Assembly: GCA_046563655.1 (NCBI GenBank)
Contig: CM102283.1
Coordinates: 3,348,001-3,412,000, forward strand
DNA from: Yuukianura sp. NJ FZ-2021
Lineage: Eukaryota
DNA: 64,000 bases
Direction: 5' to 3'
Positions 1,513-63,554 of this stretch are shown piece by piece. The translations under genes and the position numbers were made by a program. The first letter of the stretch is position 1, and each line of letters begins with the position of its first letter. Under the pieces are notes generated by a model. It had not been told where the DNA came from. It ran no database searches and worked only from the letters and a program-made list of their open reading frames with translations.

Positions 1513-4500
1513 TCAACCGGTTTTTGGAGACGCTGACTTTTGGACGGCTGGTTGCATTTTTTGCTGTGGAGGTTGCATTTTTTGCTGTGCCGGTTGCGTT
1601 TTTTGCTGTGCAGGTTGCGTTTGTTGCGGTTCTTTTCGCATGTTGATGTCCACACTTCCACCGTGCGAATAAAGTCTAAACGTTTTTCGGAAAACATCTC
1701 CAAGGTCCAGCGATCCCTCAACTTTTTCCAATTCGCATTGTGCCGCCACACTTTTTTTGAATTCCTCAAATCTTTCCCGCTCTTCATCCGTCATTTCCGT
1801 TCCTCCACGTAAATCCACGTCTTCTCCCTCAGATACCTCTTGTCTCAACGGATGAAATACTCCATTGTCATCGACGTACCCCAAAATGGTACCTACTGGA
1901 GGTACCTCACCTTCTTTCAGCATGTGAACGGTACCATCAAAAGCTCTGTAAGACATTCGTGCTCCTTCGGGAATACTCTCGTCTTCCTCAACTGGACGGT
2001 ACACCAGCATGGCTCCTTCTGGAATTTCTTCTCCTGGATGTAAAGCGTGGAATTTCATGTCTTTGTCGAGGTACCCAGCTACTCCTTGCAGAATTACGGC
2101 GCCCTCTGGAGGTACCTCACCAGGTTGAAGTTCGTGCCAAACGCCTTCAGAGTCACGGTACCCAAGAGTTGACGGTTTTGCTTCACTTGGACGAAATACG
2201 CCATCTGATTGACGGTACCCAACTTGTACCCCGGCAGGCGGAGTATCTCCAGGTTTCAAAGCGATAAAGTTACCCTCAGCGTCGAGGTACCCGATTTCGA
2301 GGTCGCTCGGTACTGGATGAAACTGGCCATCACTTCCAATGAAACCGGAGGTACCGCCTGGAGGTACCTCGGCTGGCGGAATAACTTCATGAAATACCCC
2401 GTTTTCATCCATGTAACCTCGAACACTTTCTTTTTTCAAGTATTCCGCAATTGTTCCCGCCGAAATCTCTTCGCTCTGATTGGCCGATTCACCATCCATT
2501 TGTTCAACGTTTTCCAAAAGCTGTACTTGTCCAGTTTCGTTCATCATTGCCGCTTTTCCGCCAGGAGGAATTTCTTGACCGTCGTCCAACTGGTGAAAGT
2601 TTCCATCTGCATCGACGTAGCCGCTAGTTCGATTCCCGGTAACGTCGTCATTATTTTTCATGGATTCACGTTCAACCAAAACGACTCTGCCGTCTTCATG
2701 AAGATACACCAAGATAGCACCCTCCGGTAATGATTCTCCATCTTTAAGCTGATGAAATACGCCATCGGTATCAAAATAGCCCAGTACCGCCGAGGTACCG
2801 ACGGCCTTCAGGTCTCCATTGGCCATTCGAATAGCCAATACGCTGCCGCGAGGTAGCTCCTCCCCTTCTTTGAGTTCATGAAATACGCCATTTTCGTCGA
2901 GGTACCCATATGAGCTTCCTTCTGGAAGTGATTCGGTATCCAAATGCGGGTGGATATGGCCAAGAGCGTTTCGTCGTGCCCTGGTACCGCCTGGAGGTAC
3001 CTCTTCTCCGTCCTTGAGTTCATGAAATACTCCATTTTCGTCAATGTACCCAAAAGTGGTACCCCACGGAGAAACGGTATCGTCTGGCATCTTAAAAGCC
3101 AAAGTGGCTCCTGGGGGTAACTCTTCTCCATCTTTCAGTTCGTGAAATTCACCATTTTCGTCGAGGTACCCAGCAACTCTGCCTGGGGCCAGTTTCTTTC
3201 CAAGGCGAATTGGGTACACTTTTCCTTCAGCGTTTCGGTACGCAGCGACTCCTCCTGGAGGTATCTCTTCTCCCGGTTTCAGTTCATGAAATACCCCTTC
3301 GGTATCAATGTACCCTCCAATCACTCCTTCTGGAAGTCTGTTCCACCAATCATCGTCACCCTCTGCCAGACTGATGAGAACTACTTTATTATCAGCTGTT
3401 TCGTAGGCACTGGTACCTCCTTCTGCGATTGCTCCTCCTTGCGGTACCTCGACAAAGGTACCTTCCGGATCGACGTACCCCACATGAGAACCTCGCGGTA
3501 TTTCATATTTTTCAGAGGTAGCAGGTTTTCGACTCATCAACAAAACGGTACCATCAGGGTTCTGGACGGCTCGAAGGGCTTGTTCCGGTAGAGGTACCCC
3601 CGGGAGAAGTTCAAAAAAGTTGTCAAAGTCATCGACGTATCCAAGATGTCCTTCAGGAGTGAGTTGATAAACGGTACCGCCAGGTACTTGGTACGCCACA
3701 ATTTTTGGATTGAATGCCAATCGTGGATCGCCTACGTAAGGACCGATTCCATCAACATTTGCCATTCGTACGCCAATTAAACCACGTAGGACTCCTTCTT
3801 TAACGGCCATTACTGGATGAAATACGCCATCTTTATCGAGGTACCCAATCACAGCGTCTGGTGGAAGAGGGTCACCTAAAAACACAATTTAAAAATTAGG
3901 TACCTCAGAGCTGGACACATTTTGCTACCAAAATGGGTTTCGCAGAATGTCTCGCATTGCCACAAAAACAAATCAAAAACTAGAAATCCAAAACAATAGT
4001 TGGAAAATAACTCAAACTTCGAAACGAAAATTAAAATTCGAGCATTATAAAAACCCAAAACAAAAAATTACTTTGGATGCCTAAAATTTCGAACTTCTTT
4101 GAAACACATTGAACATTTTTTCGTTTTTTAAATGTTTCTACTACTGTTTTGAATTGAAACATTCAACTGATATGAAATAGTTGTGTACCCATGACTGCCG
4201 GGTGAAAAACGCCATTGGCATCCATCCATCCAGGAACGGCTCCTTCTGGAACTTGTGCTCCTGTGCCGAATACCGTTTCAAATAAAGTTTGAAAATCCGG
4301 AAAAAACGGTACCGGTCCAACGTAGTCCTCCGGTATTGCATACTTCGCTTCATCATAGTCTCCAGAACCTGACCCGGCGGACACCGCCTTCGGCCGAGTC
4401 GGTAACTTGCAACACCGTACACAGGAAATGCTCCACTCCTTGTCAGGGTCATTGATATGTGAGGGGTCAACGACCTCGGGGGTCACGGGGTCAATGACCT

Positions 4501-5094
4501 TGTTGTAGTAATCGACATAGTCAATCACAAAGTTCTCATGCACTCTTTTGAGTAAAGATCCTGGTTTGGTGGGGCAACTTAGTCCCAGAAGTGGCGTGGG
4601 GGGTGGGGCTTCTGGTGGGGGCGAGGGGCGGCGGACACATCGAACTGTTTTTGGTGGGTCGTTCAAGCTGACTCGTTTCTTGTGCTGTTTAGTAAAAGGA
4701 AGTTTCCGTGCTTCAACTTTGAATAAGTAGGTGGGGTCAGTGACCTTGGGGTCATGGTTGCCCAGGGGGATGAACTTCATGGACATTTGGAACATGCGGG
4801 CTTCCGGAGTGATGACCTTGGAATAAGACCCCTCGGGGTAAGTCATGCCCTTCACTCGGGGTTTCAAGGTCACGTCGGGAAATAGTGGATGTGGCTTAAC
4901 GAGTAATTCCAAGTCGGCTTCTGTGTAGATTTTTTTGTGTAAAGCGTCATCTTCAGTGTCTAAAAGGCAGAAAAAATTATTGACCTTTGACTTTTCAATG
5001 AAACTAATGTTGACCTGTGACATTTAACTTTAAAAGAAATGTTACCTTGAAATTCATTTTCAATGATTTCAGATTCCAGCGGGAAGAGAGGCAT
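1513..5094 (-). CDS. Uncharacterised protein of about 1060 aa with about 17 GY(L/V)DxxGxFH repeats; exons 5094-5046, 4959-4189, 3875-1513
   Basis: Long ORFs joined by phase-1 GT-AG introns; ATG at 5094 (MPLFPLESE...). Confidence 0.8.
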
Positions 5095-5449
5095 AGTGAA
5101 AAAAGCGGGATTTTTTAAATTAGATTAAAACTTAAATCTCTGGTAGCGTAAATTCTGAATTGCTGATTTAAAAAAATAGTAAATGGGATTTTGAAAATTA
5201 CAAAAAAATTAGCAACCGCATTTTTTCAGAAAAGTTTGAAGTAAATTTTTAAAACGAAGGTCAACAAAACAACAGCGGCAAAAAAAAAACAAGAAGAAAA
5301 TTCTTACACGATTCAAATCTTTGTTTCCAAGGCATAATTTCTTTTTCATAAGCTGCAAAATTTTACTTTTTGAAATCGTTTAAAATTCATGTTCCTTTTG
5401 GAAAAAAAAATCAGTCGACAAAAACTTTGCTGTCCAAACCCCTACTATG

Positions 5450-5600
5450 ATGATGCGGATTTTGAAACAGAGACGAATGAAGCCATAAACAAATTTTCCA
5501 ATTTCCTCCAATTTCCATGTCTACTATTACGGATTTTGAATTTACTCGAACATTGTTAAAATTTTCAAAAGCAATAAACGAAAGTTGAAGGTTTCTCAAA
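5450..5600 (+). pseudogene. Degenerate copy of the EcKinase last exon and 3' end
   Basis: gcggattttgaaaca...aacaaattttccaattt...ctactattacggattttgaatttactcgaacatt matches 50963-51065. Confidence 0.8.
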
Positions 5601-6035
5601 GATAAATTTAGATTTTTGAACCGTTGTCTCCCATCGTCCTTGTGGTGGAATCTACCCAAACTACCGTTTCAAGTAAAATGAAAAGTCGGACAAAGTTTTT
5701 CCAAGTGAAGTTACAAGATTTAACTTCATTTGCATTTGTCAATCCTCCGAGTTGACCAGCAGAAAAGAAAGATTAGAAGATTGAAGTCAATCTTCTAATT
5801 TGCAGAAATTTTGCATAAAACGTCAACAAGGGGAAGTTTCACAGCACGACTTGACGCACACAAGGTAATAACTTTTTTTTTGCAAATAGTTTTTGCTAAA
5901 TTCTTGAAAATTGAAATTTTGAAATCAGTGTGCTGGAGAACACTGGGTCGTCAAGTCTATCTCATTTCCTTCTCGTTATACTCAGCTAACTTTGAAAAAA
6001 ATTAGTAAAATTTGATACAACTCAATATTTCCAAA

Positions 6036-8346
6036 ATGTCAGATCGGGATTTGAACACACCGAAACCAAGGGGCACCGAGGAACAGCCCCGACAATACTT
6101 CGGTGCTTTTTCAGACGCTGAATTTGTCGCTCTTCCGAATCAAGAGGGCCCCACATCGTCATCATCCAAAAAACCGGGAGCCATGACCGAAGCACCTCAA
6201 AAACAGGTAAAATAATAATATAGTCCGACTGATTAGTTAAGATTTGAACTTTTTTTTTCAAAAAGTCAAGAAGTCAAAGCCTGACGCGCCTAAAAGTCAA
6301 AAGCTAAAATAAACTTAATAAGTTCGGTTTCGCGCATTTGCGGATTTTCAGTGCGAATGCACGCTTTTAATGATTTGAAACGGACATCATGTGATGCATT
6401 TGAACAAAACCTCTTGTCTTTTCAAAAAACTTTTCAAATTTTCCCTTTGTTCTAAAAAATCCATTCCGTTCTAAAAGGTTTTCAAGATTTTCAAACGTGT
6501 TTAGAACAGATTTGACCAAAAGCAGTGACAATTTTTCTTCTTCGACCCACTGCGACTCTTTCAAAAATGCAAATTCAGCTAAAAATTTTATTTCCGTCGC
6601 CTGTTTATTGCAAAAAGATGCAGCATGAAATTTTGCCAGAGCCTAAAATTCAAAACCAGTTTTCGAAAAAATGAAATTTTGAAAAAATTTTCAAAGCGAA
6701 GCCAAAGCAAAGCAAAAAAAAAATGAATTTACGTTCTTTCCTGCTGTTTTCAAATAATTTTTTTTAAACTTGGTTTTAGTTAAAAAAAAATACTCAACTT
6801 ATTATTTCAAAATTTGGAAAACATGTCAAAACGTGATTTGCTGGGAAAGTGGGTGCGAGAATTTCAGAATTGTTAACTTCGTTCAAATAAATTTCAAAAG
6901 TGGAGCGTCAAAAGCGTCGTCTTTCGATTGGCCGGTGGTCGAATCTCCACGGGAGCAAAAAATTTTGAAAGTTGCTTCTCGTTTTTAAGGTTGAGATGGC
7001 ATTGATTCCGAATCGGAATCGGTAGCCATCGGAATCGGTTCGTCTCCATCTTCGGTATCGTTCGTACTTCCGAGTCCAAGGATTTCCTGGACTCGTGACA
7101 AGTACGAAAAGTCACGTGCGTTGGGCAGTCCACGCAGAACGCAGGCGGCAAGCGCAGAACGATTCAAATTCATTTGCGCCGCGTCGATCCAGAGATTTTG
7201 GTTGCTGTCGTAGCACTCCACTTACGGAATTGTCGTCGTACCGTTGAAACCTAAAATTTTGAAATTCAAATTTTCAATTTCCCGTGGTTTTTTACCGCCA
7301 CTGACGAAGATCATGTCGTCGACAATTGCAGCAGCAAAGTCGCTTCTTGGACTGGACATGTCTGTGATATACTCCCAGTCACGTAGTGTAGTCGGATCGT
7401 AGGTTTCGGCACTACTAAGGCGGGAAAACCCATTTGAAACCTACCAAATTTTCAAAATTTTGAAAACTTTTGAAATTTTGAAAAATTTAGATTTCGAATC
7501 TACCGCCAATTGCATAGAGTTTGTTTTTGTGAGCTGTGACGACGACGCCGCTTCGCGGGCTTTTCATGGGAAGAATAAAAGTCTATTGGTTTTCCACCGG
7601 ATCAAAAACTTCTACGCTGTTCAAAACTTCTTGACCACTGGAAAATAATCAAAATTTTGAAAACCAAAATTTCAGAATCCAAAATTTCGAAACTCTTTAC
7701 TCTTACTTGAATCCACCAGCCACATAGACTTTGCCGAGCAAAGCGCATGCGCTGGCGTCTGATCGCTGCCGTCTCATTGGTGGACAAACCTCCCACTGAT
7801 TCGTTGGCGGATTGTAGCGCTCAACGGAATTCATTCGAATCCGTCCATTGAATCCACGAAAGATTTTCAAACGTGTTTAGAACAGATTTGACCAAAAGCA
7901 GTAACAATTTTTCCTTTTCAACCCACTGCGACTCTTTCAAAAATGGAAATTCAGCTAAAATTTTATTCCCATCTTCTCTCGATATGCAAAAAAAGCACAG
8001 CATGAAATTTTGCCAAGGCCTAATATTCAAAACAAGTTTGGAATAAATAAATTTTGCAGACTTTTTGAAGCCTTGGTTTTTATTTCAGGGAAACAAGAAA
8101 ACACTGAAGAAGGCACGACGCCTGGCCAAGAGACGTGCCAAATGGATGAACAAGAAGAAAGTGGCAATGGCAGGCATTGAACAGGGAAAGATTGAACTGG
8201 AAGACATGGAAAAAGAAGATCTCGCAATTCGACAGCAGCGTGAAATAGAAGATCTTGAAAGGAAGAAGAAGTGGAAGCTTTTGGAGGAGAAAGTCAGTGA
8301 TTTCAAAAAGGAAGTGGCGAAAGCCGACAAGATCCTGCAAGAATAA
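6036..8346 (+). CDS. Orphan gene A: low-complexity exon plus basic coiled-coil exon; exons 6036-6206 and 8089-8346
   Basis: Phase-0 donor CAG|GTAAAA at 6207 and acceptor TTTCAG| at 8088 join two ORFs in frame; leader and donor context shared with the gene at 61196. Confidence 0.6.
6367..8040 (-). pseudogene. Rearranged inverted copy of EcKinase exon 3 pieces (6367-6660, 7860-8040), the spacer, and the last four KLHL10 exons (6985-7858)
   Basis: Near-identical to 48755-50400 on the opposite strand; introns retained; lacks EcKinase exon 2; no 5' end of either gene. Confidence 0.9.
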
Positions 8347-8730
8347 GCTACATTTCTTAAAAGGTTGCAAGGTTCGTAAACAAAAAATACAAAACTTTTT
8401 CTACACCAGGTTGGTTGTCCAGTAAGTGAAAGTTTTAAAATTTGTTTGTCGAAAAAATTCTGCGTTTCTTTGGTAATTTTTTCAAAAATTCATGTAAGTT
8501 GTAAGTAATACGATTTCATTTTCCATATTCTTCTGATTAAAATTCGTAACCACCTTTTGAGGTGGTTTTTTTTTTGCTTCCAAGGTATAATTTTTTTTCC
8601 GAAGCTGCAAAATTTAACTTTTTGAAATCGTTTAAAATGCATGTTCTATTTTGACAAAAATTCAAAGTGGATAAAAGCTTTTCAAAGACAAAAAAAGATC
8701 AGTGATTAGATTTGCTAAATTTCTGTCCGT

Positions 8731-9473
8731 TCAGAATTTTAATAATCCTGTCCCCCGTCCTGTCGTTTTCGTCTCTCCATCCCGTCCATCCTCCGTCTTT
8801 TTCTGTCCACCTCCACAAATGACCGGTACTAGGACATCTCCTGGCAACTTGTGAGATCCACTGGCCTTGTTGTAGTAGTCCAGAAATGCAATGACCAATT
8901 GCTGGTGATCTTTCTTGACCTGCAGTGGAGCATCGTCCGATGGCCAGTCGAGTGTCACTTGGTCATAGTCTTCGTCTTTTGCTGGGGGCGGAGTCAGTGG
9001 TCTCGGAATGCAGCCAATGGGGTGTCGTTTCTTGGATTTGGACTTGGGAGCGCCCGAGGCGTAGCTCAACTGTCGTCCTTTGACTGCAAACAAGTATGGA
9101 GGATCCGATGGTCCGCCGGTTTCATTCGGAGTGTTGTTGAGCAGTGGGATGAATCGCATGGACGTTTTGAGGACCTTGACATGTCGCTTGGTTCGTTTGT
9201 ACGTGGCGCTGGGACGTGGCAAATTCAAATCTTGTGGGTACTGAAACGGGGGCGGTTGGGGGTGGAAAGTGGGCGTGGCTTCTGGTTGTGCCCTCAGGCG
9301 TTCGATAATTTCGTCCTGCGTTTCTGTCCTGGCTGAAAACATCAAAATTAGCAGTTTTTCGAAATTTGGAAATCATAATTTTTCAAATTTCAAATTTTCA
9401 AATCAAGGTCACGTGGAACTGAAAATTTACCGGTTGGTGGGGGATCCAAATTTTGAGCACCTCCGGGCATCAT
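8731..9473 (-). CDS. Uncharacterised protein, paralogous to the N-terminal domain of the repeat protein at 1513-5094; exons 9473-9431 and 9332-8731
   Basis: Shared blocks SMRFIPL/SMKFIPL, DPPYLFAVKGRQL/DPTYLFKVEARKL, VIAFLDYYNK/VIDYVDYYNK; same phase-1 first intron. Confidence 0.7.
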
Positions 9474-9735
9474 TCCAACTTTTTTCTTGTGTTTGCTCAG
9501 TCGCGGCATTTCGAAAACATAAAAAAATTTTTGGTAACACAAAAAAAAAATTTTAGACCGAAATGTATGAAAATGTGCAAATTATTTTCAAAAAAACTTT
9601 AAAAGGTCAAAATTACGAACAAAACTTGATAAATTATTAAATTATGACATGATTTGTTGTTAGTCAATCTCCTTGTAAAAAAAACTTGTTTACTTTTATC
9701 CCGTCGAAGTTAGAGCGTTTGGAGTGATTTCGTTC

Positions 9736-25102: not shown

Positions 25103-25381
25103 AATTCAGGATAAGGAGATAACTTCAGATAAGTTTCTCTCCATTTTCTAATTTACGTATCGTTTCTCCCTATTTTGTGAATTCTAATTTAAAATCTAAA
25201 CAAAACTCTACTCTCATCAATGTAAAATTCTAAACAAAGTAAATTTAAAACGATGCTTTAACCTTAATTTTATTTTCAATTTTTAGATAACCCGACTCTT
25301 TGCTGTTATCTCCTTATCTCTCGGTTGTATCTTTGGATTTATCTAGAGATATCGTTGGTTGTGATTGGTTGATTGGTGACG

Positions 25382-26864
25382 TTACTTCGGTGGAGATCCA
25401 CCCACGCTGGTACGTTTCCCGTCTGGTGCGGTAGATTCTCCGCTCAAGCGTTTTTCTCCAGCAACGTCAGGTACGGCTGAAGAGCCGCTCAAACGTTTTC
25501 CGTCTGGAGCTGTGGATGCCCCGCTCAAGCGTTTTTCTCCAGGAACGTCTGGCACGGCTGAAGCTCCGCTCAATCGCTTTTCTCCTGTTGGTTCTGGCAC
25601 GGCTGAAGCTCCGCTTAAGCGTTTCCCGTCTGGTACTGCAGATGCACCACTCAAACGCTTTTCTCCTTGTTCTGGTACGGCTGAAGCACCGCTGAGTCGT
25701 TTTTCTCCAGCGATTGTAGACTCTCCGCTGAGTCGTTTCTCTCCACTGGCTTCTGGTACGGCAGATGCAGCGCTCAGTCGCTTTTCTCCTGTAGGTTCTG
25801 GTACGGCAGAGGCACCACTCAAGCGCTTTCCTTCTGGTACGGCCGATTCGCCACTCAAGCGCTTCCCTTCTGGTACGGCAGATTCTCCACTCAAGCGTTT
25901 TCCTTCTAGTGCGTCTGGCACGGCTGAGGCACCACTCAATCGCTTTCCTTCTGGTACAGCTGATTCTCCGCTCAAGCGTTTTCCTTCTGGTATGGCCGAT
26001 TCGCCACTCAATCGCTTTCCTTCTGGTACTGCCGATGCACCACTCAATCGTTTTCCTTCTGGTACTTCTGGCACGGCCGATGCACCACTCAAACGTTTTC
26101 CGTCTGGAACAGCTGATGCACCACTCAATCGTTTCCCGTCTTGAACAGCTGATTGACCGCTCAATCGCTTTCCATCTGGTGCGGCAGATTGCCCACTCAG
26201 TCGTTTTTGTTCCATCACTCCTGCCCATTGATCCTCACCTAAAACAAAGCAATTGATGGTCAAAGTAATTGGTTAATCATTGTAAAAGTTAATTGATTAA
26301 TCTAAGGTAATTAGCACCATTTCTATACCTGCATACTCTCCGTATTCTTCCATTGGTGGTGGAACGTCCATCATTTCTTCCTCTTCGTCTTCAGGCAAAG
26401 GACCGCCGTACCCTGGTGGCAAGTTGGGGTATCCCGGAGTCACACCTTGAGAAAAACGAAAAAAATTTAAGATTCTGAAATTTTGAGAACTGTTTTTCGA
26501 AAGGTTTACCTTGGTTCATATTGGGTGGAGCCAATCCCTGTTGAGCACTTTCCCATTGTTTTTGCTGGACAACTCCCAACGCATTTTGGACGTCACGGCG
26601 TTTCAGCTCTTCGTTGTACCGCCAGCGCAGGAGCCAGTGACCCAGGTACTCGATTGGATCTGGACAAAAAGAAACGTCACTGATACGTCAAAGTCATTTT
26701 TTGAAAAATTGATCAATAATCTTGCGGTTACCAGCTGGTCGACGGATACAAATTTCAGCCAAGGCTGCTACCAGAACTGGGCCCAACGTTTTCTTGAGGT
26801 ACTCCACTTCTTGGTACGTTCGTTCGTTGACATTGGATGGACGAGCTTGATTCTCGGCAGCCAT
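25382..26864 (-). CDS. Dpy-30-motif (DYDC1/2-like) protein with a long KRLS repeat tail
   Basis: Spliced N-terminus YLKKTLGPVLVAALAEICIRRPADPIEYLGHWLLRW (missed by the ORF track); final exon has 20 KRLS plus 1 KRTS. Confidence 0.8.
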
Positions 26865-41691: not shown

Positions 41692-42316
41692 GTTTCCCAA
41701 TTTGGAGTTTTGCTGTATTTCTAAATTCGATTTTTTACACCAACTATTGAGTGTTAGCTTCGAACTACTAAATTCGAGCTTTTAGAAAATTTGGTTCTGG
41801 AATGCTCCAATGGGATTGCATAAAAAGTTTTGCAAAGGTCATAACGTCAATCCGCAAGTTGAAGGACGGGAAGATCTTTACAATCTTTCCTAAACCTATG
41901 ATGATAACGATAAGGAACAAACTAGTTTTTCTTTTTTAATTTTTGATGAGTTTTAAATGCAGATAACGTTTATTTTCAGAAACGCAAGTCTAGTCTCGTA
42001 ATATTATTGACCCAGGTTGTCCGCAAGAATTGACTTTGAACTTGATTTTTATTGCGTGGAATAAAGTATCATTTGTAGACTGCCATTTTCGTCACGACAA
42101 GCCCCTAGAGCCTATTTCAACAGTTTTCTTTTGCACTTGAGGAGTGGACCATTTCAGCATACAAACTTTCCACAGTGAAAATTGTAAATGGAGCATTTGT
42201 AAAATAAAAAAGAAGGAATTTTGGACTAAAAATGAGCAAACGTTTTTCGCCGTTTTCTTATGCCATGTGCCAAGAAACAGATTTGGAAATTGCCGTTTTG
42301 CTGTATTGAATTGTTA

Positions 42317-43252
42317 CAGTAAATGCTCTAATGCAAGCGCGTATTCTAATATAAGCGCATACTCTAATGCAAGCGCGGTTTCAGCGGGGGCAAATTGCGA
42401 TATAAGCGCGGTAGCTAACTTGAGTTTAAAGCAGAGCCTAGAGCAGTGACATCATCTGTTTAACTTCTAATGTTAATTTGACTCAAATCAAAATGTAGCA
42501 CTTAAATACAAGTTTTAAAAATGGTGTAACTAAAAGACGATCGTTTGATCTCAGTTTTAAGTTAAAAGTGGTTCAGTACGCTTCTACTAATACCACGGAT
42601 GGTACCGCAGCTCACTTCGGAATACACCGAAAACAAGTCTTCAGTTGGCTGAAGCAAAAGGATAAAATCGGTAAAAATTTAACTAAATTTAGCTTTCGAC
42701 TCGCGAAAACAACTTTCTAAAGAAGCAGACAAAATGGTTTACGATTGGATTTTAAATCAGCGCACCAACCAGTAAAGTGTCTCCTTCAAATCTATTCGTG
42801 TGAAAGCTAGGGAAGTCTACTCTGCAGTGCTTCAAACAAACGAATTTCAGGCCAGCAGTGGTTGGCTACAAAAATTTATGAAGCGCCATGACCTCAGTTT
42901 GAGAAAGAAAGCGTCGTTGGCTCAAAAAGATCCAAATTCGTTATTTGAGAAGCTTGTTGAGTTCGTCATGTACACTTCCAACCTCGCTGTTACGAATAAA
43001 ATTTCCAACCCAAATATTGTTGCCATGACTGGAATATTTTTTGACATGCCAAGTATTACTACAGTGGGCACAGTTGGAGGAGGCTTGAAGAAAGCAACAG
43101 TGACACCAGCGACGAATGGCATCACTATTAATTGAATTTTGGCTCACTTAAAACTTATTAATTATTCCGGTAATAAATAGTGTTCTAATAGAAGCGCGTC
43201 CGAAAGGTCGAAAATTCTTATAAGCGGCGCGCTTATATTAGAGCATTTACGG
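42317..43252 (+). mobile_element. Internally deleted pogo/Tigger-family (Tc1-mariner) DNA transposon
   Basis: TIRs CAGTAAATGCTCTAATGCAAGCGCG and CGCGCTTATATTAGAGCATTTACGG; TA on both flanks; transposase relics SFDLSFKLKVV and FQASSGWLQKFMKRHDLSLR. Confidence 0.9.
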
Positions 43253-43309
43253 TATTTTTATAATAATAAGAATAAGAATAATAAAACAATGTTATATACT
43301 AATTAACTA

Positions 43310-45823: not shown

Positions 45824-48800
45824 ATGGCTGAAAGATTTGTTCCGTTGGACTCCACTGAAATTGTGACGAAGGAAGTAATTGAAGAAATTTTGGCACAAAG
45901 TTATTCCAATTTGACTTTGATTTCATTTAAAGTGGAACCTGGAACTGACCGTGGAGACAATTACCTGTCGCTCATGTACGCTGTGGAAGTCACCGCGGCT
46001 GAAAAGGTCAAAGGTCACAACGGTCACGACATTGCCCATAACCAAGGTCACAACGATGCGCAGAATCTGTTCAAAATTTCATGGATGTTCAAAACAATTC
46101 CGAGAAATCCACTGCGCCAGTCACAAATTCGCGAAAGTGGATTTTACCACCGAGAAGCCCAAATGTATCAAAAAGTTCTTCCAGAACTTTTTTCAAAATT
46201 TTGGACCAATGAGGATGACTCACTTTTTGCAAAATGCTTGGCCGTAAAGTTATCGCCTCCAGAAGTTGCTACAGCACAGGACTACATTGCTCTGGAAAAC
46301 CTCAAGGTCAAAGGGTAAGACTGAAATATTTTGTTGTCATGACTACGCATGGTTGGTAAGTGCTTTGCTGGTGCTCTGCTTCTAACAAAAGCCACACAGA
46401 AACCATTGTTCCACTTTTCAAAAAAATTTAGTTTTAGGTTTTCCAAATTCTCAGCACATTTTTTCATACAATTTGAAAGTAGGTTTTAGAACTCTGAAAA
46501 GTTTGTAATCACGATACTGCGTCACGACGTTCAAAAATTCGAAATTTCCTGGCACTTCAAGGTATTTCTCAAAAATTTAAAATGTTTAAAAAATTTTTGT
46601 GTTTTTGGAAAGGTAAAAGCTTACAAAAAGGTTAGGTTGATATTTATTTTTTATTTTAGAGTAAATTCGGTTGCCATCGATTTTTCTTTTGAAAATTGTT
46701 TGAAAACTTTGTTTAAAAATTCAAAAACGTCGATTTTAAAAGTTTTTGAGAAGTTTAGTGTTAGGGTGCGGTGGGTTTTAAGCGATTTATCGCTTCTGAC
46801 TTAAACTCCAACTTTTTTGTAATAAAAGCGCCAACCCAACTCGTCGCAATCGGTGACGCTTCGTCTCCCGACCACCAATGGACTTAATGCGACGTCTCCG
46901 ATTGGCTGGACGCCCCAACTCGTCCCACCCTCCACGGTCCCACCAGTCCTCCTCTCAACAGCAAGTGGGACGGCCCCACGGTGGCCCCACCGGAAGAACT
47001 ACCCATACTCCACCACCAGCAGTGACTCCTGCACAGCCTGTTCCTACACCGTTGCCATTTCAGGATCCGTTGACCGTGCCATCTCCGGTCACCAACAACA
47101 ATAACACGACTTTTCCGTGGCGGTTTCACAGCGGTGTGGTCGTGAATTCGAATCGGTCGCGGCGTCAATTGCGACCAAGTCGCAGTTCATACGCGGGACT
47201 CGCGACGCAAAAATCGCACTGCCAAGAATATCCAGAGTCTTGGACCAACTGGCAACAAATTGGAGTCGGCGCAACAGCTTTTGTCGTCTCTTCAGACAAT
47301 ATCGTAAGTTTCAAAATTTTCAAATTTTTTAAAAATTTTCAAATTTTTGAAAAATTTTCAAAAAGTGTTTTTTTTTTTTTTAGAAATTTCCAGTCCATCC
47401 AGTCGTCCTGGCCGGAGCGAGTCCCGTTTTCAAATCGCTGTTCAGCTCATGGCGTCCGCAAAACAGCTCCACTTTTTCGCCCGACTGCTCCACTTTTTCG
47501 CTGGAAGTAGATCATGTCATGCTTGGCTTACTATTGAAGTACATTTACACTGGAGTGTGTCACGTGACGCCCGAAAACGTCGAATCGCTGCTGGACGCTG
47601 CAAATCGCTTCAAGGTCGTCGGAATCATTCAGCGCTGTTGCCAAGTTTTGCACGGAATCCTCACTCCACAAAACTCCGTCAAAATTTACAACGTTGCCAA
47701 ATCCTGTTTGTGCTCCCAACTTCAAACCAACGCCAAAATGTACTTGTTGCACAATTTCAAAGCCGCGATTGACCAATCAGAATTTTTGAATTTGGACTAC
47801 GACGAACTCTCTTCACTTTTGCGTGACGACTGCCTCAATGTCCGCAGCGAAGAACTGGCGTTTTCAGCGATTCAGCGCTGGACAGAGCATGACCCAGAAA
47901 AACGACTTCAGCGATTGGTTGATCTTCTTGGCACAATTCGATTTGGACTCATGCAGCTCTCTTTTTTCAACGACGTCGTCATGACCTGGCAGTACATCGC
48001 TACAAACCCAGTCAGTTTTCAAAATTTTGAACTTTTCTTAAAATTTTTTCGAAAAAGTAAGTTTTTCAAAATTTTTAGACTGTCATAGAGGGACTACTTC
48101 CGGCCCAAATGTTTTTGGCTGCATTTGAAGGCCGAAATGGTAGTGACCTTGACCCGACCGAACCTTTGACCCGCCCACGCGTTCCGTACGAAATTATCTT
48201 CGCAATTGGTGGCTGGAGTGCAGGAAGTCCAACGAGGTTAGGTTTTTTATTATTATTTTTAATTAATTAATTTATTTATTAATTAATTTATTTATTTATT
48301 AATTAATTAATTAATTTATTAACTTAATTATATTTTTAGTTTTATGGAAACTTATGACGTCAGAGCGGATCGTTGGTTTTTGTCACAAGGGTCTGACGTC
48401 ACACCGCGGGCCTACCACGGTCTAGTCACTCTTGGACATTCCATTTACATGATTGGTGGTAATTTTCAAAAAAAAAGTTTCAAAATTTTTGAAGTTCAAA
48501 GTTTTCAAAGTTCGAAATTTTGAAATTTTGAAGGTTTTGATGGAAATGAACACTTTAATACCATGAGATGTTTTGATACAATGACGCGAACTTGGACTGA
48601 GAAGGCCAACATGCATTACCCACGATGTTACATCAGCTGCTGTGTGCTAAGTACGGTTCAAAAATTTGGAAAATGTTTCAAAATTTTAGTTTTTTTTCAA
48701 AATTTTACTTTTTCGTCAAAATTTTGTGTGTAGACGGTCAGATCTATGCCATTGGTGGATTCAACGGACGGATTCGAATGAATTCCGTTGAGCGCTACAA

Positions 48801-51080
48801 TCCGCCCACCAATCAGTGGGAAGTTTGTCCACCAATGACACGGCAGCGATCAGATGCCAGCGCATGCGCTTTGCTTGGGAAAGTCTACGTCGCTGGTGGA
48901 TTCAAGTAAGACTAAAAAAACTTCGAAATTTTGAATTCTGAAATTTTGGTTTTCGAAATTTTGGTATTTTTTGCAGTGGTCAAGAAGTTTTGAACAGCGT
49001 AGAAGTTTTTGATCCGGTCGAAAATCAATGGACTTTTATTCTTCCAATGAAAAGCCCGCGAAGCGGTGTCGTCGTCACTGCTCACAAGAACAAGCTCTAT
49101 GCAATTGGCGGTAAATTCAAAATCCAAAATTTTCAAAATTTCAAAAGTTTTCAAAATTTTGAAAATTTGGTAGGTTTCAATGGGTTTTCCCGCCTTAGTA
49201 GTGCCGAAACCTACGATCCGACTACACCACGTGACTGGGAGTACATCACTGACATGTCAAGTCCAAGAAGCAACTTTGCTGCTGCAATTGTTGACGATAT
49301 GATCTTCGTCATTGGCGGTAAAATTTTAATTTCCAAAATTTGAAAAATTTCAAGATTTTCAAAATTTTCAAAAATTTCAGGTTTCAACGGTACGACGACA
49401 ATTCCGTACGTGGAGTGCTACGACAGCAACCAAAATCTTTGGATCGATGCAGCTCACATGAATTTGAATCGATCTGCACTTGCCGCGTGCGTTCTGCGTG
49501 GTCTGCCCAATGCGCGTGACTTTTCGTACTTGTCACGAGTCCAGGAAATCCTTGGACTCGGAAGTACGAACGATACCGAAGACGAAGACGAACCGAGTCC
49601 GATGGCTACCGATTCCGATTCGGAATCAATGCCATCTCAAGCTTCTTAAAAAAACGAGAAGCAACTTTCAAAATTTTTTGCTCCCGGGGAGATTCGACCA
49701 CCGGCCAATCGGAAGACGACACTTTTGACGCTCTACTTTTGAAATTTATTTGAACGAAGTTAACAATTCTGAAATTCTCGCACCCACTTTCTCAACAAAT
49801 CACGTTTTGACTTGTTTTCCAAATTTTGAAATAATAATTTTCAGTATTTTTTTAAAAACAGCAGAACGTAAATTCATTTTCTTTTGCTTTGCTTTGGCTT
49901 CGCTTTGAAAAAAAATTCAAAAACCTTCTAAAAATAATTTTCGGTTTTAAAATTTTGATGTTTCAGTTTCAAAATGGTTCCAAGGAATACATTTCTTGAC
50001 TTGCAGCAAGCAACTATCACAGTTCAGGCAAGTTTTGTTTTAACCCTTACATACAAGTTAAAGATTTCAAAATTTCAAATTCTTCAAAATTTCATATTTT
50101 TTTTTGGAAACTGGTTTTGAATTTTAGGCTTTGGCAAAATTTCATGCAGCATCTTTTTGCAAATGGGGAGGCGACGGAAATAAAATTTTAGCTGAATTTC
50201 CATTTTTGAAAGAGTCGCAGTGGGTTGAAGAAGAAAAATTGTCACCGCTTTTGGTCAAATCTGTTCTAAACACGTTTGAAAACCTTGAACAACTTTTAGA
50301 ACAGAATGGATTTTTAGAACAAACTGAAAAGTTGAAAACTTTTTGAAAAAACAAACGTTTTTGATCAAATGCATCACATGACTTCTGTTTCAAATCAGTT
50401 TCCTTCTGTTCTAAATCACGGTGACCTCTGGACCAACAATCTTCTATTTTTAGCCAATCACAAAGGTTAGTTTGAAAAGCGCACCAATGCCATTTTGGAA
50501 TTTTCATTTTTTTTTAAATTTTAGGTGAGTCTTTTCAAAAATTGAAAATGGTTGATTTCCAAATTTCAAAAGTTGGATCAAGGGTTTTGGATTTGTCGTA
50601 TTTGTTCTACACAAGTCTTCAGAAGGAAGTACTAAATACGCAGCTTCCGCAACTCCTTCGCATGTACTTTGATGAATTTCATGAGAACATCAAAATTTTA
50701 ACTTTTTCAAAAAACACAGAAATTTTGAAATTCAAATTTGGAGATTTGAGTTGGGAGAACTTTTTAGCAGAATGGACTCAATACAAATTGTATGGTTTCG
50801 TACTGGCCGTGTTCTACGCCCCACCCAGTAATTTAGAAAACTTTTCAAAAATTTAGAATTCTAAAAGTTTCCAAACATGAAAAGAAAATCATCAAAATTT
50901 GGTTTGATACTTGCAGTGCTGGCAGTTGCAGAAAATATTCCTGACATGGAGACTTTGTGCTACGCGGATTTTGAAACAACGAAAAATGAGGAGAACAAAT
51001 TTTCCAATTTACTCCAATCTCCGTATCTACTTTTACGGATTTTCAATTTAGTCGAACATTTTTCAAATTTTCAGAAGTAA
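45824..51080 (+). CDS. Ecdysteroid kinase-like (EcKL/DUF227) gene; exons about 45824-46314, 49967-50027, 50128-50465, 50525-50827, 50916-51080; apparent 1-nt frameshift near 50340
   Basis: GDNYLS, FYHREAQMY, LENLKVKG|FKM, ALAKFHAAS, HGDLWTNN, MVDFQ, DLSYLFYTS. Confidence 0.82.
46878..49649 (+). CDS. KLHL10: BTB-BACK-Kelch protein, KLHL10-like, nested in EcKL intron 1
   Basis: FPVHPVVLAGASPVF, YIYTG, BACK domain, RPRVPYEIIFAIGGWSAGSPT, TYDVRADRW, Kelch repeats, SALAACVLRGLPN. Confidence 0.85.
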
Positions 51081-51141
51081 TAATAACAGAAAGCCTACAG
51101 TCTTCGGAGGTTTTTAAAAAAAAATAGATTAAATACAACTA

Positions 51142-56594: not shown

Positions 56595-56860
56595 TTCATA
56601 ATTTGGTTTGATGCTTTTGCAGTGCTTTCAGTCACAGAGCATATCCCTGACGTGGAGACTGAATTTTATGAAGATTGTGAACCAATGTCGAATGAGGCGA
56701 ACAAATTTACAATTTCCTCTAATCTGCATTTCTACTGTTAAGAATTTTGAACTCAGTTGACTACTATTTTAAAAATTTCAAGGAAATTGAACGCATTTCG
56801 AAATACAAAGTAAATCCAACGAACAAAAGAGAATTTACAGTCTTCGAAGGTTTTTTCCAA
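56595..56860 (+). pseudogene. Degenerate copy of the EcKinase last exon and 3' UTR
   Basis: tttggtttgatgc...ttgcagtgct...atatccctgacgtggagact...aacaaattt...acagtcttcgaaggtttt matches 50895-51115. Confidence 0.8.
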
Positions 56861-57352
56861 AAATAACTTTAAACGGACGACGATTTTACATTTTTTCCCG
56901 TTCGCAAATGAAATTGGATTGAAAAAAGTTTTTAAAAGAGAGTTGAAGTTTTGGGAGGTTCATTCTTCAGCACACATTTCGTAGAAGTAGAAATTAGAAT
57001 GTTAGAAGTTAGTCAAATTCAAAACCAATAAATGCAAATAATTTGCGAGACTGCCTCACAATCAAGCCAAGGGGGATTGAAGGGGGAGGATTATAGCACA
57101 GCTTTCTGAAACAGGTAGGTACAAAAATGGCTTGGATGTTTGCAAAAATATTTTGTAAAGAAAATGCCTGGAAATTTTGCTTCATGAGACAAAGCGTCTC
57201 CAGGCCTTCTCATTCCCTCTCTACTTCCACTGGAACCTCTACGGCAGTACTGTGTTTTCCATTGTGACCTTTGACCTCTTGTGATTAACTTTTGATTAAC
57301 CTCTTTTAATTGATTTGAACGCTAACCACTGCCCTGATCGTGAAGACGAATC

Positions 57353-58289
57353 ATGAATACTCCCAGCGGAAGTCCTACTCATAGTGATCATTTTAATTCT
57401 GCAGAGATTCCTACGTTCGCTGACCTTTGGACCGAGGGAAACTCACTGGGATTACCGGAAACGACGCCAGCACAGCCCACAAATCACGAAGCACAAAAAC
57501 CATCTTCCTCTCAATCTAAATCAATGACGACCACGGATAAGCTCAAGCGTCCCGCGGTAAACCAATTACAACCCATTCCAAATCCGCTAAAGCTTTACGG
57601 TAAATGAATGCAGTAATTTGATTGGGGGAAATTATTAACAGGCAACTGGAGAAGGGGAGACTGTACTAGCACGCAAGCGAGCCAAACTGCTAGCAACAAT
57701 CCAAGCAGCCACAAAGGAGTTGGCCGACTTGGACAAAACAACTGAACTCCATCCGGAGAATACCGAACAGGAATCGACTCCAACGACGTCGACAAAGCCG
57801 CAACCAACCCCAACTCCATCTACCTCGCAATCAACGAGTGCTGCAAGCCATGAGCCTCCCAAGGTAAACCAATTACAACTCAAATTCGGTTTGGCGCAAG
57901 TCTAGAAATGTGCGAAACCATTTTGAAACTGAAACTTTCGCTACTTGCATACCCCGGATAAACAGTTCATTCCACTTTTTTGATTTCAGACGGGTGGTAT
58001 AAGAGGAGGCCAAGATGAAGGACGAGTGAACGTAACTCAACAAAATCAGCTCATGCTCGCGGAGGCAAACGAGATGGAAGCCCAGCTGAAAAAAAAGATG
58101 CAGGAAGATTTCAATCAGTTCAAGAAAAAGATGGAGGAAGACTTCAACAAGGCCATCGCTGCATGGAAAGCTCAGTCGAAAGAAAAGTACGCAACCGAAA
58201 GGGATGAAATCGAACGCATGCGTAAGGCTGGGACTGAGATGGGGCAAGAAGATGCCAAAAATCCTCAAACTGACACAGCTCGTCAATAA
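57353..58289 (+). CDS. Orphan gene B; exons 57353-57556, 57642-57863, 57990-58289
   Basis: Three ORFs joined by phase-0 introns; last exon homologous to 62606-62896. Confidence 0.72.
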
Positions 58290-58727
58290 TACATGCCACA
58301 ATAATAAGCACTCCTATGCAAACTCAAACTTAGCGACGACATATCTATGGAATGATGACTGCATTAGAAAACCACATTGTGGACAAACGGACGAAGATAC
58401 GTTTGAGGCGCTAATTTACTTGAACGAAATTAACTTTGGTACTCAGTTCCTACAATTAATTTTTTTACTTACTACTACATCGACAGTGCTCGATGGATTT
58501 TCTAAAAATAACTTTTCAAAATAAACCGATTTGACATTTTTCCCATTGTTCAAATTAGAAATGGAATGAAAACAAATTTTTGAAAAGATGTAGAGACTGT
58601 TCAACTGCATTACAACGGTAAGCTGTATAATATTTATTAACAGTTAACTGCAATATTATGTTAGATTAATTGTACAATCAATTATGTAAATTGTCCAACT
58701 TAATTAAATTAGATTAATTTTGTATTT

Positions 58728-60119: not shown

Positions 60120-60711
60120 TGGACGAGCAAATGAAGCGAAATGTTGGTGTGAATCACTGTTGCAAGAAAGTACTGTTCCAGTACTTCCAAAATGTTGCTA
60201 AAACGTTGGTTACTGGATTTCGTTTGGGTTTCGTCGTGCTTTAGCACTTCTCGGTGGTATTACGTGCGGTACTACACGGATGCTGGTACGACTTTGCGTT
60301 TTAGTTGGAAGATTAGATCTGAACAGTTGAGTTTAGTTTCTGTGCAGATTAGTTTAAAAATGGAAGGTAATTGAGTTTTTAGCACTTCAAATTATCATGA
60401 GTGATCAACATGAAATGCCATACATGTGTTAAGTATTCAAAAATATTTAGTATATTTAAGCAATATTTAAGCAAACTCAACGTAAAAATCAACGTTAAGC
60501 AAAAATTTTTAACGTGCATGAAATTTTAGTATTTAAATTTTCATTTACGCCTCGAAAGCCAAAGAATCAAGAAGTCTTTTGCTTTGAAATGTTTCTGATT
60601 TTAAATTGTCAATTTTTTGAGTAGCATTTATTATAGTCTTGAAAAAAAAAAGTTTTTAGTTTTTTTTTCTATTGTGTGGAACTTGTTATTTTTGGTTTGG
60701 TATGGAAGTTC

Positions 60712-60790
60712 AGCCGGATTTTGAATTTAGTCGAACATGTTCACATTTTCAAAAGCCATAAACGAAAGTTTAGTCTTCGAAGGTTTTTGA
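60712..60790 (+). pseudogene. Short relic of the EcKinase 3' end
   Basis: cggattttgaatttagtcgaacat...agtcttcgaaggttttt matches 51035-51115. Confidence 0.7.
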
Positions 60791-61195
60791 AAGATATAAT
60801 TTTAGATTTTGACCTTCGTTTCCCATTGTCCTTGTCGTGGAATGCCTACCGTTTGCTAAGTAAAATATGGAAAGTCACAAGATTTTGAGTTCATTTGAAT
60901 TTGTCAATCTTCTGAGTTCATTTGGAGAAAAAAAAAGATTTGAAGATTGAAGTCAATCTTCGCAGAAATTTTGCATAAAACTCCTACAAGGGGAAGCTTC
61001 GCAGCACAACTTGCCAGAAACAGGTAACTAACATTTTTTTAATATGATTTTTGGTGCATTGAGGAAAATTGGAAATAGGAAATGAGTGTGTTGGAGAATA
61101 GTGACAAGAAAAGTCATATAGTTTAAGACACTGACCCTTCACTCTGACCTTGTCAGTCATCTATCGTTCTACTAAGTTGAACAGTTAAGTGTACC

Positions 61196-62896
61196 ATGTC
61201 CGACTCCGACAGTGACCTTCATACCCCAAGTCCCCCGACCATTGAAAACAGCGCCGCAGTAATCTCTGAATTGCCATCATTTGCAGATCTTACGGAACTT
61301 GACCTTCCGCAAAGAGAGGAGCCTGGACCTTCATCACAAATCCTGCTTGGCATGACGGCTGGAACCCCTCATCCTGGGGTAAAATAATAATAAAAAACCA
61401 ATCCAAACAATTTTTTGAAAAAATTGGTTTCAGTTGGAAAAATACTGAAATTATTATTTCGAAATTTGGAAAACAAGTCAAATCGTGATTTGTTGAGAAA
61501 GTGGGTGCAAGAATTTCAGAATTGTTAACTTCGTTCAAATAAATTTCAAAAGTAACGCGTCAAAAGTGTCTTTTCGTCCAAAATGTCGTGTTCCGATTGG
61601 CTGGTGGTCGAATCTCCCCGGGAGCAAAAAATTTTGAAAGTTGCTTCTCGTTTTTTTTAAGAAGCTTGAGATGGCATTGATTCCGAATCGGAATCGGTAG
61701 CCATCGGACTCGGTTCGTCTTCGTCTTCGGTATCGTTCGTACTTCCGAGTCCAAGGATTTCCTGGACTCGTGACAAGTACGAAAAGTCACGTGCGTTGGG
61801 CAAGCCACGCAGCACGCAGGCGGCAAGCGCGGAGCGATTCAAATTCATGTGTGCAGCGTCGATCCAGAGATTTTGGTTGCTGTCGTAGCACTCCACGTAC
61901 GGAATTGTCGTCGTACCATTGAAACCTAAAATTTTGAAAATTTTGAAATTCAAATTTTGAAAATTTCAATTTCCCGTGGTTTTTTACCGCCAATGACGAA
62001 GATCATGTCGTCCACAATTGCAGCAGCAAAGTTGCTTCTTGGACTTGACATGTCTGTGATGTACTCCCAGTCACGTGGTGTAGTCGGATCGTAGGTTTCG
62101 GCACTACTCAGGCGGGAAAACCCATTGAAACCTACCAAATTTTCGAAATTTTGAAAACTTTTGAAATTTTGAAAAATTTGGATTTTGAATTTACCGCCAA
62201 TTGAATAGAGCTTGTTCTTGTGAGCAGTGACGACGACGCCGCTTCGCGGGCTTTTCATTGGAAGAATAAAAGTCAGTTCGTTTTCGACTGGATCAAAAAA
62301 CGCTGTTCAAAATTCTCAAAACGAATCATTTGGAAATTCAAAATTTTGAGGTTTTTAATCTCACTTGAATCCGCCAGCCACATAGACTTTCAAATCGAAA
62401 TTCAGCGAAGTAAAATCAAAGCAAAAAAAATGGATTTGAAATGAAAACGTTCTTTCCCGCCTTTTTAATTTTTTTTAAAGTTGGTTTTGTGTTTGAAACT
62501 ACTGTATGTCTGTCCGTATGTCTGTCCGTATGTCTGTCTGTCTGCCATTTCGCTACTTACATACGCCGGTTACAACTGCTCATTCCACTTTGTTTTTGAT
62601 TTCAGACGAGCGGTTTAAGAGGAGGGCAAGCCGTAACTGGAAATCCGGAGGCCATGCTTGAAGAAGCGGATAGGAAGGAAGCCCAGTTGCAGAATAAGAT
62701 TCAAGAAGAGTTCGACAAGTTCATCGCAGAATGGAGACTTAAAATGGAACAAAAGTTCGCACAGGAGAGAGGCGAAATCGAACGGCTGAGAAATGTTGCG
62801 ACCGCAATGCTGGAAAAAGATGCCGAAAAAAGTGAAACAACGGAAACCGCTCAAAGTCCTCCGCCACAACAACTGCTGGATTCTGATTCCGATTAG
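61196..62896 (+). CDS. Orphan gene C; exons 61196-61378 and 62606-62896
   Basis: Phase-0 splice gives TSGLRGGQ...MLEEADRKEAQLQNKIQEEFDKFIAEW...ERGEIERLR, homologous to gene B. Confidence 0.72.
61435..62390 (-). pseudogene. Inverted partial copy of KLHL10 3' exons and 3' flank inside the gene C intron
   Basis: Matches 48880-49850 on the opposite strand, introns retained, 5'-truncated. Confidence 0.92.
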
Positions 62897-63554
62897 GAGA
62901 GCTTCCTTAAGTACCTAACTTCCTTTTTGCTTTTACTAAAACTGTGTACGTTAACTGCAATACCGTGATTAGTTAATTACTAATTAACTAATTATTGATT
63001 AATTGAACGTGCCATCATCTGTTGTTGTAAAATGTTAAAACGCCGTAACATTAGTCGGGTTGCCAAACATTGAGCAGGGCAGGAAGCTAACTCAATAGGA
63101 GAGAAATCAAATGCTAAGATTTTAATTAATTATTTAAGTTAATTAGTTAATTAACTTAGACTAATTAACTCATTATGCAAAATTGAACTTAACGACGACA
63201 GATCCACAGCGAATGACGACTTGAAGGCCTTGCTCTAAAAAAAACATGATCAATCTGACAGAGTTTAGAATTAAAAATTTAATTTTCTTCTAAGAAAGCT
63301 AATGAGCTACACTTCTTAACCCCTTTTACAATGCTTCTCAAAGCTAACTAATTAACTTCGTAACAAAATTTAAGTTATATAATTAAGATTTAAGTCGGAG
63401 TTAGACTCCATTCTCATTCCTTTCCCATGCCTTTTATGGGAATTAAAGGCTATATAGCCGTGAAAAATAATTAGTTGTAGTTTTTTTTTCTATTTTGTGG
63501 AACTTGTTAATTTTTGAATGATTTTTGGTGTGAAGTTGACGGACTTTGTGGAGT

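Follow-up and report, generated by a model that had tools for sequence, protein, structure and literature searches.

Five copies of a small gene module lie within 430 kb of contig C1 (CM102283.1), with open spliced frames and fast-diverging exons. We consider it probable, at roughly 60%, that they form a lineage-restricted family of five protein-coding genes, which arose and multiplied as a core of 1-3 kb was duplicated locally at the DNA level. Three copies (A, B, and C) are in the window, by which we mean the whole stretch of 64,000 nucleotides analyzed (C1:3348001-3412000); D lies 340 kb upstream and E 28 kb downstream, so that the range is C1:3.010-3.440 Mb, with copies partly clustered, partly dispersed, and confined to one chromosome (Table 1). 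The order of parts is common to the copies: a decayed piece of the last exon and 3' end of an EcKL gene, then the first exon, an intron in phase 0, and finally the last exon, which codes for a charged helix. An earlier note on this DNA had described the module in three copies; the module is real, and the number of copies is five.

Table 1. Features of the five modules and of their source locus (window positions, unless given on C1).
Feature	Position	Strand	Remark
Module A, direct repeat, left copy (host sequence)	5320-5428	+	84% to 8573-8681, z = 34; only two places in genome
Module A, EcKL last-exon relic	5455-5577	+	83% to 50964-51083; in-frame stop
Module A, common upstream DNA, probably promoter/5' UTR	5578-5827	+	four homologous copies (A, C, D, E)
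Module A, 3' end of putative non-coding leader exon	5828-5864	+	donor GT 5865; candidate acceptor ends 5985
Gene A, coding exon 1	6036-6206	+	57 codons, Pro/Ser/Thr-rich; homology with C exon 1 by DNA (z = 8.3) and by protein (z = 7.0)
Intron A, inverted decayed EcKL internal exon	6371-6689	-	89% to 50077-50397
Intron A, inverted 3' half of BTB-BACK-Kelch gene	6677-7860	-	88% to 48752-49922; two stops, one frameshift
Intron A, second inverted EcKL exon piece	7860-8064	-	85% to 50077-50286
Gene A, last exon (type Y)	8089-8346	+	85 codons, basic part before charged helical part; protein search gives one copy; no Pfam/database match
5' half of dispersed ~235-base MITE, incidental	8368-8483	+	behind gene A
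Module A, direct repeat, right copy	8573-8681	+	partner of 5320-5428
Intact EcKL gene, source of relics	45824-51080	+	last exon 50917-51080; Pfam EcKL E 2.6e-14, 8.2e-15
Intact BTB-BACK-Kelch gene	46880-49649	+	start approximate; Pfam BTB, BACK, weak Kelch_1
Module B, EcKL last-exon/3' end relic	56596-56860	+	frameshifted; 75% over 56596-56780
Module B, putative leader exon end	57080-57114	+	donor GT 57115
Gene B, coding exon 1	57353-57556	+	weak protein match to C exon 1 (z = 3.5)
Gene B, exon 2: short helical start, then duplicate of exon 1 3' half with donor	57642-57863	+	matches exon 1 at DNA z = 12.6
Intron B2, 40-base inverted remnant of EcKL intron (49960-50004)	57896-57935	-	37/40 aligned bases, z = 13, local comparison
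Gene B, last exon (type Z), modeled as one long helix	57990-58289	+	47% identical to C last exon; helix 8-90, pLDDT 84.6
51-base remnant of SH3-SH2-SH3 gene 3' flank behind B	58310-58360		cf. gene C 3' flank
Degenerate extra copy of module upstream region behind B	58483-58588	+	73% to 56837-56939
Direct repeat, left copy, abutting module C	60632-60723	+	z = 22 to 63453-63548
Module C, EcKL 3' end relic	60715-60792	+	81% to 51036-51119
Module C, putative leader exon end	60988-61023	+	donor GT 61024
Gene C, coding exon 1	61196-61378	+	3' end homologous to short first exon of D and E (z = 8.2, 10.6)
Intron C, inverted kelch-gene 3' exons	61404-62391	-	88% to 48879-49851; last two exons without amino-acid change
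Gene C, last exon (type Z)	62606-62896	+	acceptor common to B and D
Gene C 3' flank, inverted-orientation copy of SH3-SH2-SH3 gene 3' flank	62903-63395	+	83% (BLAST) to C1:3309119-3308696
Module C, direct repeat, right copy	63453-63548	+	partner of 60632-60723
Module D	C1:3011458-3010334	-	first seen as weak genome match of A's upstream DNA
Module E	C1:3440480-3439695	-	found by BLAST of D over 642 kb

When a DNA profile was run with nhmmer over 642 kb, the strong matches were the five modules and the parent EcKL end only (next match E 0.0014 or weaker), and the EcKL-derived piece stood upstream of the gene in all five copies. Genome-wide searches (98.7 Mb in 22 contigs) with the DNA of A, B, C, and E, three proteins, and one pattern gave no further copy, though such searches miss diverged copies and are blunt, module E having escaped two of them. 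The acceptor pattern matched genome-wide in B, C, and D only (control 0). A 39-base match at C1:3119799 was rejected as a further module for want of an acceptor or exon behind it, as was a decayed EcKL 3' part on another contig (L078, C3:579.6 kb), behind which no module was seen by eye.

The constant part of the module is its EcKL-derived upstream DNA, first exon, and phase-0 intron. The EcKL last-exon relics which the earlier note had placed before A, B, and C are confirmed by comparison with the intact exon (Table 1), as is the stretch common to A and C (5530-5940 and 60715-61098, 73% by self-BLAST) and their common donor (14 identical bases at 6207 and 61379). The three genes have open, spliceable frames of 142, 241, and 157 amino acids for A, B, and C, respectively, with GT-AG introns in phase 0. 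The leader motif proposed for these copies is well supported between A and C (z = 25) and between C and B (z = 6.8 against shuffles, amid poorly alignable DNA), but not between A and B alone (z = 1.7, not significant); it occurs in exactly three places in 642 kb, a count that speaks for specificity only, since the pattern was built from those same three. A leader exon arising as a duplicate of exon 1 was not supported. In D and E, the leader and most of exon 1 are absent, and the first exons (10 and 9 codons, respectively) are homologous to the end of C exon 1. Kelch-gene pieces were not found in their introns; that of D holds a full copy of the ~235-base MITE. This MITE, which we take to be hAT-like, has terminal inverted repeats and is present in at least 40 other places, with 8-base flanking duplications visible in several of them. 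The neighbors of module E are a CMI2B-like ciliary gene, in head-to-head arrangement, and a bZIP gene, in tail-to-tail arrangement (L020:6614-7129 and 8850-9500, plus).

The other passengers come from nearby genes. The BTB-BACK-Kelch gene is nested within an EcKL intron on the same strand, and a Hemocyanin domain is also among the Pfam matches of the region's genes, beside EcKL, both domains being indicative of an arthropod. The SH3-SH2-SH3 gene that gave C its 3' flank (domains by Pfam) lies about 100 kb upstream; it is intronless (L014:1549-2197, minus), and a further duplicate of its 3' flank lies at a distance of about 20 kb (C1:3289014-3289410, 85%). KLHL10 (the earlier note's name for the kelch gene), DDX27, and GRB2/drk are presumptive names, and the identity tested is that of the Pfam domains. 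Over 174 codons, the intact kelch gene differs from both relics at 10 silent and no replacement sites; private changes are 8 silent, 7 replacement, and 1 stop in relic A (the second stop being at a three-way site) and 6 silent and 4 replacement in relic C, with five silent three-way sites. Relics A and C differ from each other by 13 replacement and 19 silent changes against 74% expected (p = 7e-5). Because these differences are mostly silent, the pieces come from copies or highly diverged alleles that stayed functional long after separating; judging from these changes, the source copies were under purifying selection after separation, and a single insertion of a dead fragment does not account for them.

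Several further features of the window were recorded. Two paralogous open frames without Pfam match (4163-5023 and 8731-9372, minus; 33% identity over 120 amino acids) flank module A and make up a second local orphan family. A 791-codon open frame (1513-3888, minus) consists of many Gly/Pro/acidic repeats of ~37 residues, with no convincing Pfam match; a tandem repeat (25380-26272) has units of 27-39 bases and long open frames on both strands; and the stretch 42311-43281, with an open frame at 42776-43135 and matches of 70-85% on other contigs, is probably a decayed DNA transposon.

There are three types of last exon (Y in A, Z in B and C, and a third in D and E, which are 53% identical), none detectably homologous to another by shuffled alignment or hhalign, and the family is therefore a mosaic rather than one copied gene. 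It had been described as one coiled-coil gene in three copies. This stands for B and C, whose last exons are clear paralogs (B3/C2, z = 20.7; the only other strong match among 21 exon pairs is A1/C1, z = 7.0), but not for A, whose last exon gave p = 0.17 and 0.20 against those of B and C. The first exons of A to C are rich in Pro, Ser, and Thr; the last exons are charged, and hydrophobic residues at heptad positions stand out most in E and A. AlphaFold2 models from two-sequence alignments give single long helices for the last exons of E and B, which is compatible with coiled coils but is no proof of them.

An older orphan family of an ordinary kind, in which all last exons descend from one exon and have over-diverged and the EcKL piece traveled with the first duplication without any part in regulation, is the most serious of the alternatives, although we think it unlikely. 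It would explain why the B/C and D/E types share an acceptor, from which a weak match extends over about 24 bases of the D exon, why the start of B exon 2 weakly resembles the last exons of both A and E (p = 0.004 and 0.003, in 15 tests), and why the left ends of the EcKL relics differ among copies, with that of E very decayed. It is opposed by the lack of significant similarity between last-exon types, by the retention of the EcKL-derived junction in all five copies while other passengers vary, and by upstream DNA that is better conserved than the exons. Somewhat less likely still is a reading that goes beyond ours, that of a miniature core duplicon acting as an exon-trapping cassette, in which a promoter from the EcKL 3' end and a fixed first exon and splice scaffold would have recruited unrelated new helical last exons three times, the resulting proteins then diversifying under germline conflict.

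In Pfam and the collections searched, the proteins match neither known transposon frames nor conserved genes; by the earlier note, such a match would have refuted its proposal. In Pfam, every match of the family exons was below the curated cut-offs. Searches of protein collections covered the last exons, and longer fused forms for B/C only; there was no homolog of the C last exon at E 0.1 (27 candidates, 52-168 amino acids only), of the D/E alignment at E 1 (180 candidates, 40-132 amino acids), of the A last exon at E 0.1 (1 candidate, 46-149 amino acids), or of the B/C last-exon profile at E 0.001 among 1.84 billion representatives. The ESM Atlas gave nothing usable for A, and the top score of 0.84 for E, to unnamed clusters, was discounted. 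Nine exons compared by phmmer with 16051 six-frame pieces of the 642 kb matched, below E 0.04, no sequences but family members, and neither this nor the genome searches revealed an intact coding parent. A literature search found nothing on this orphan gene family.

The absence of homologs in the databases searched would also be expected if the modules were decayed duplication debris with frames left open by chance in stop-poor, purine-rich sequence, and the region is indeed rich in dead duplicates (the kelch and EcKL relics, and the EcKL pseudogene piece on C3). Frame retention makes this improbable. While A, B, and C were picked because they are open, D and E were found through non-coding homology and are therefore an unbiased test; despite net indels of 12, 18, and 33 bases between them, the ATG, both splice sites, the stop, and the reading frame are all retained. 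A frame free of stops has a probability of 0.08-0.13 if the distance is taken from the exon itself and of 0.25-0.33 if it is taken from the flank. With the former, the neutral chance of such frame retention is ~0.001-0.005 (0.12 multiplied by 0.009 from the observed spectrum, or by 0.037, one third cubed), or about 0.003-0.01 at the flank distance. For B and C the probability of no stop is 0.01-0.03, but this pair was picked for openness. Net exon indels are in frame in six of six cases (B/C and D/E together), against 14 multiples of three among 67 non-coding indels in 11 alignments (p = 2e-4). Base-shuffled exons were open in only 0.6-2.3% of 5000 trials, and the kelch relics in the same introns did gain stops and frameshifts. 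Amino-acid constraint appears weak: dN/dS was 0.50, 0.67, and 0.51, and the pooled B/C and D/E value of 0.57 (CI 0.37-0.90) is only marginal under simulated transition bias (neutral P 0.007, 0.05, and 0.10 at kappa 1, 2, and 3), which the debris explanation has in its favor. In the A/C exon-1 DNA alignment, 4 of 11 gaps are in frame and many are out of frame. The five-gene family is probably functional.

The exons diverge 2-3 times as fast as the adjacent non-coding DNA. Mismatch between D and E is 0.25 in the exon (49/195) versus 0.13 upstream (31/237; p = 0.002) and 0.14 at the acceptor; between A and C it is 0.36 in exon 1 (59/163) versus 0.14 upstream (42/297; p = 1e-7) and 0.07 in the kelch relic; and between B and C it is 0.285 in the exon versus 0.09 at the acceptor (54 bases). 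Alignment bias does not explain the D/E gap, because none of 150 simulations at a true distance of 0.3 came out as low as the D/E flank. Four-fold sites of the A and C kelch relics differ at 13/77, much as the upstream DNA does, so that a neutral distance of ~0.15-0.2 is a fair estimate. The four-fold sites of the orphan exons are also fast (6/14, 8/17, and 6/11), so that positive selection, promoter constraint, and flank conversion are indistinguishable. The proposal of a young, fast-evolving family spreading with pieces of the EcKL/KLHL10 locus holds in its main part, namely five copies carrying the EcKL 3' piece, with exons that outpace their flanks and match nothing in Pfam or the databases. 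Its spread, however, is local (430 kb on one contig), kelch-gene pieces occur in A and C only, and "young" is relative, the neutral distance being ~0.14-0.2 within A/C and D/E and the groups barely alignable with each other.

The copies have kept their introns, lie in both orientations, carry a mosaic of passengers, and do not extend beyond 430 kb, all of which fits local DNA-level duplication, our preferred reading. Capture and carriage of local gene fragments by a non-autonomous mobile element (Helitron- or Pack-type) is very improbable, for although the mosaic of fragments from several neighbors, the two orientations, and the long direct repeats at A and C would suit it, there are five copies in 430 kb only, the left breakpoints differ, and the modules lack shared termini, inverted flanks, a short target duplication, a high copy number, transposase homology, and a match to any transposon family in Pfam. 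The MITE was also rejected as the vehicle of module A, as the repeat flanking A is not part of it.

Under local duplication, the founder would have stood directly behind EcKL, with a promoter overlapping the EcKL 3' end, and viable copies would have had to carry that piece; the EcKL 3' end is the one invariant passenger, which suggests that the promoter lies there. The variable part of the module consists of the last exon, a charged helix in each of its three types, and passengers from nearby (inverted EcKL and kelch pieces, another gene's 3' flank, and MITEs). B might, with low confidence, occupy the founder's position, separated from EcKL by a helicase/TBP-like block: the intact EcKL end and B's relic flank this block, and a tree of the relics pairs them at 85/86, a weak support from mixed regions. 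B's relic is no closer to those of A, C, and D than intact EcKL is. Host sequence at the left edge is repeated behind the module for about 110 bases in A and about 95 bases in C, so A and C may have entered by break repair, with a target duplication of about 100 bases; such repeats abut two of five modules, B, D, and E having none, and one of 40 random controls scored as high. B may be a fusion of two copies, and D and E would have lost the leader and most of exon 1. The mechanism of spread is itself ordinary, and break-repair routes to interspersed duplication have been reviewed (PMC3420103).

What the proteins do can be suggested only tentatively. They may be interaction modules of the germline, probably the male germline, with a disordered N-terminus and a partner-pairing helix diversifying under selection; the guess of germline comes from analogy with Sdic and the core-duplicon genes and from the ciliary neighbors (IFT52, the CMI2B-like gene, and the kelch gene). 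The last exons of D, E, and A resemble bZIP or short leucine-zipper proteins in that a long amphipathic helix comes after a basic stretch; the B/C type has no basic stretch. bZIP_1 and bZIP_2 gave no match at E up to 1 (D/E) or 0.1 (A), and the neighboring true bZIP gene does match. Derivation of E from this adjacent gene was rejected: p = 0.006 for E (one of six tests) was discounted, since plain shuffling breaks heptads, D gave 0.22, and there was no DNA-profile match.

Among known systems, Sdic of Drosophila melanogaster is similar in being a lineage-restricted multi-copy gene which arose by local duplication and rearrangement with a remodeled first exon, and its promoter elements were made partly from an exon of an unrelated neighbor, AnnX (PMC3395120). 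According to the same source, the Sdic coding region comes from a known parent, Cdic, and its copies are near-identical and tandem, while in the present family no coding parent was found and the copies are dispersed, with exons 25-50% diverged. The promoter and sperm function of Sdic were tested (PMC3395120), while the present family is known from sequence alone. Human core-duplicon families are confined to single chromosomes, have taken promoters from unrelated genes, and are often under positive selection (PMC6920530), and in NPIP the gene structure has changed while the open frame was kept (PMC7419210). The five modules likewise have a shared core with variable duplicated flanks and, like NPIP/LCR16a, LRRC37, and NBPF, lie on one chromosome, part clustered and part dispersed, with fast exons (PMC6920530; PMC7419210). 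They differ in that primate cores lie in large, high-identity blocks, whereas here the units are 1-3 kb in a 99-Mb arthropod genome, and in that the last exon occurs here in three types that do not align with each other. In primates, there is documentation of positive selection, copy-number variation, and expression (PMC6920530; PMC7419210), against DNA sequence here. The best reading, by this analysis, is a lineage-restricted family from local segmental duplication, like Sdic and the primate core duplicons in miniature.

If the genes are expressed, they would be new orphan genes whose promoter region, intron filling, and 3' flank are traceable, with coding exons that have no traceable source. 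Expression would also extend core-duplicon-like behavior, which the papers cited here describe mainly in primates, to units of 1-3 kb in a small arthropod genome. The five modules offer five natural variants with which to ask if the end of a dead gene can carry promoter activity to new places.
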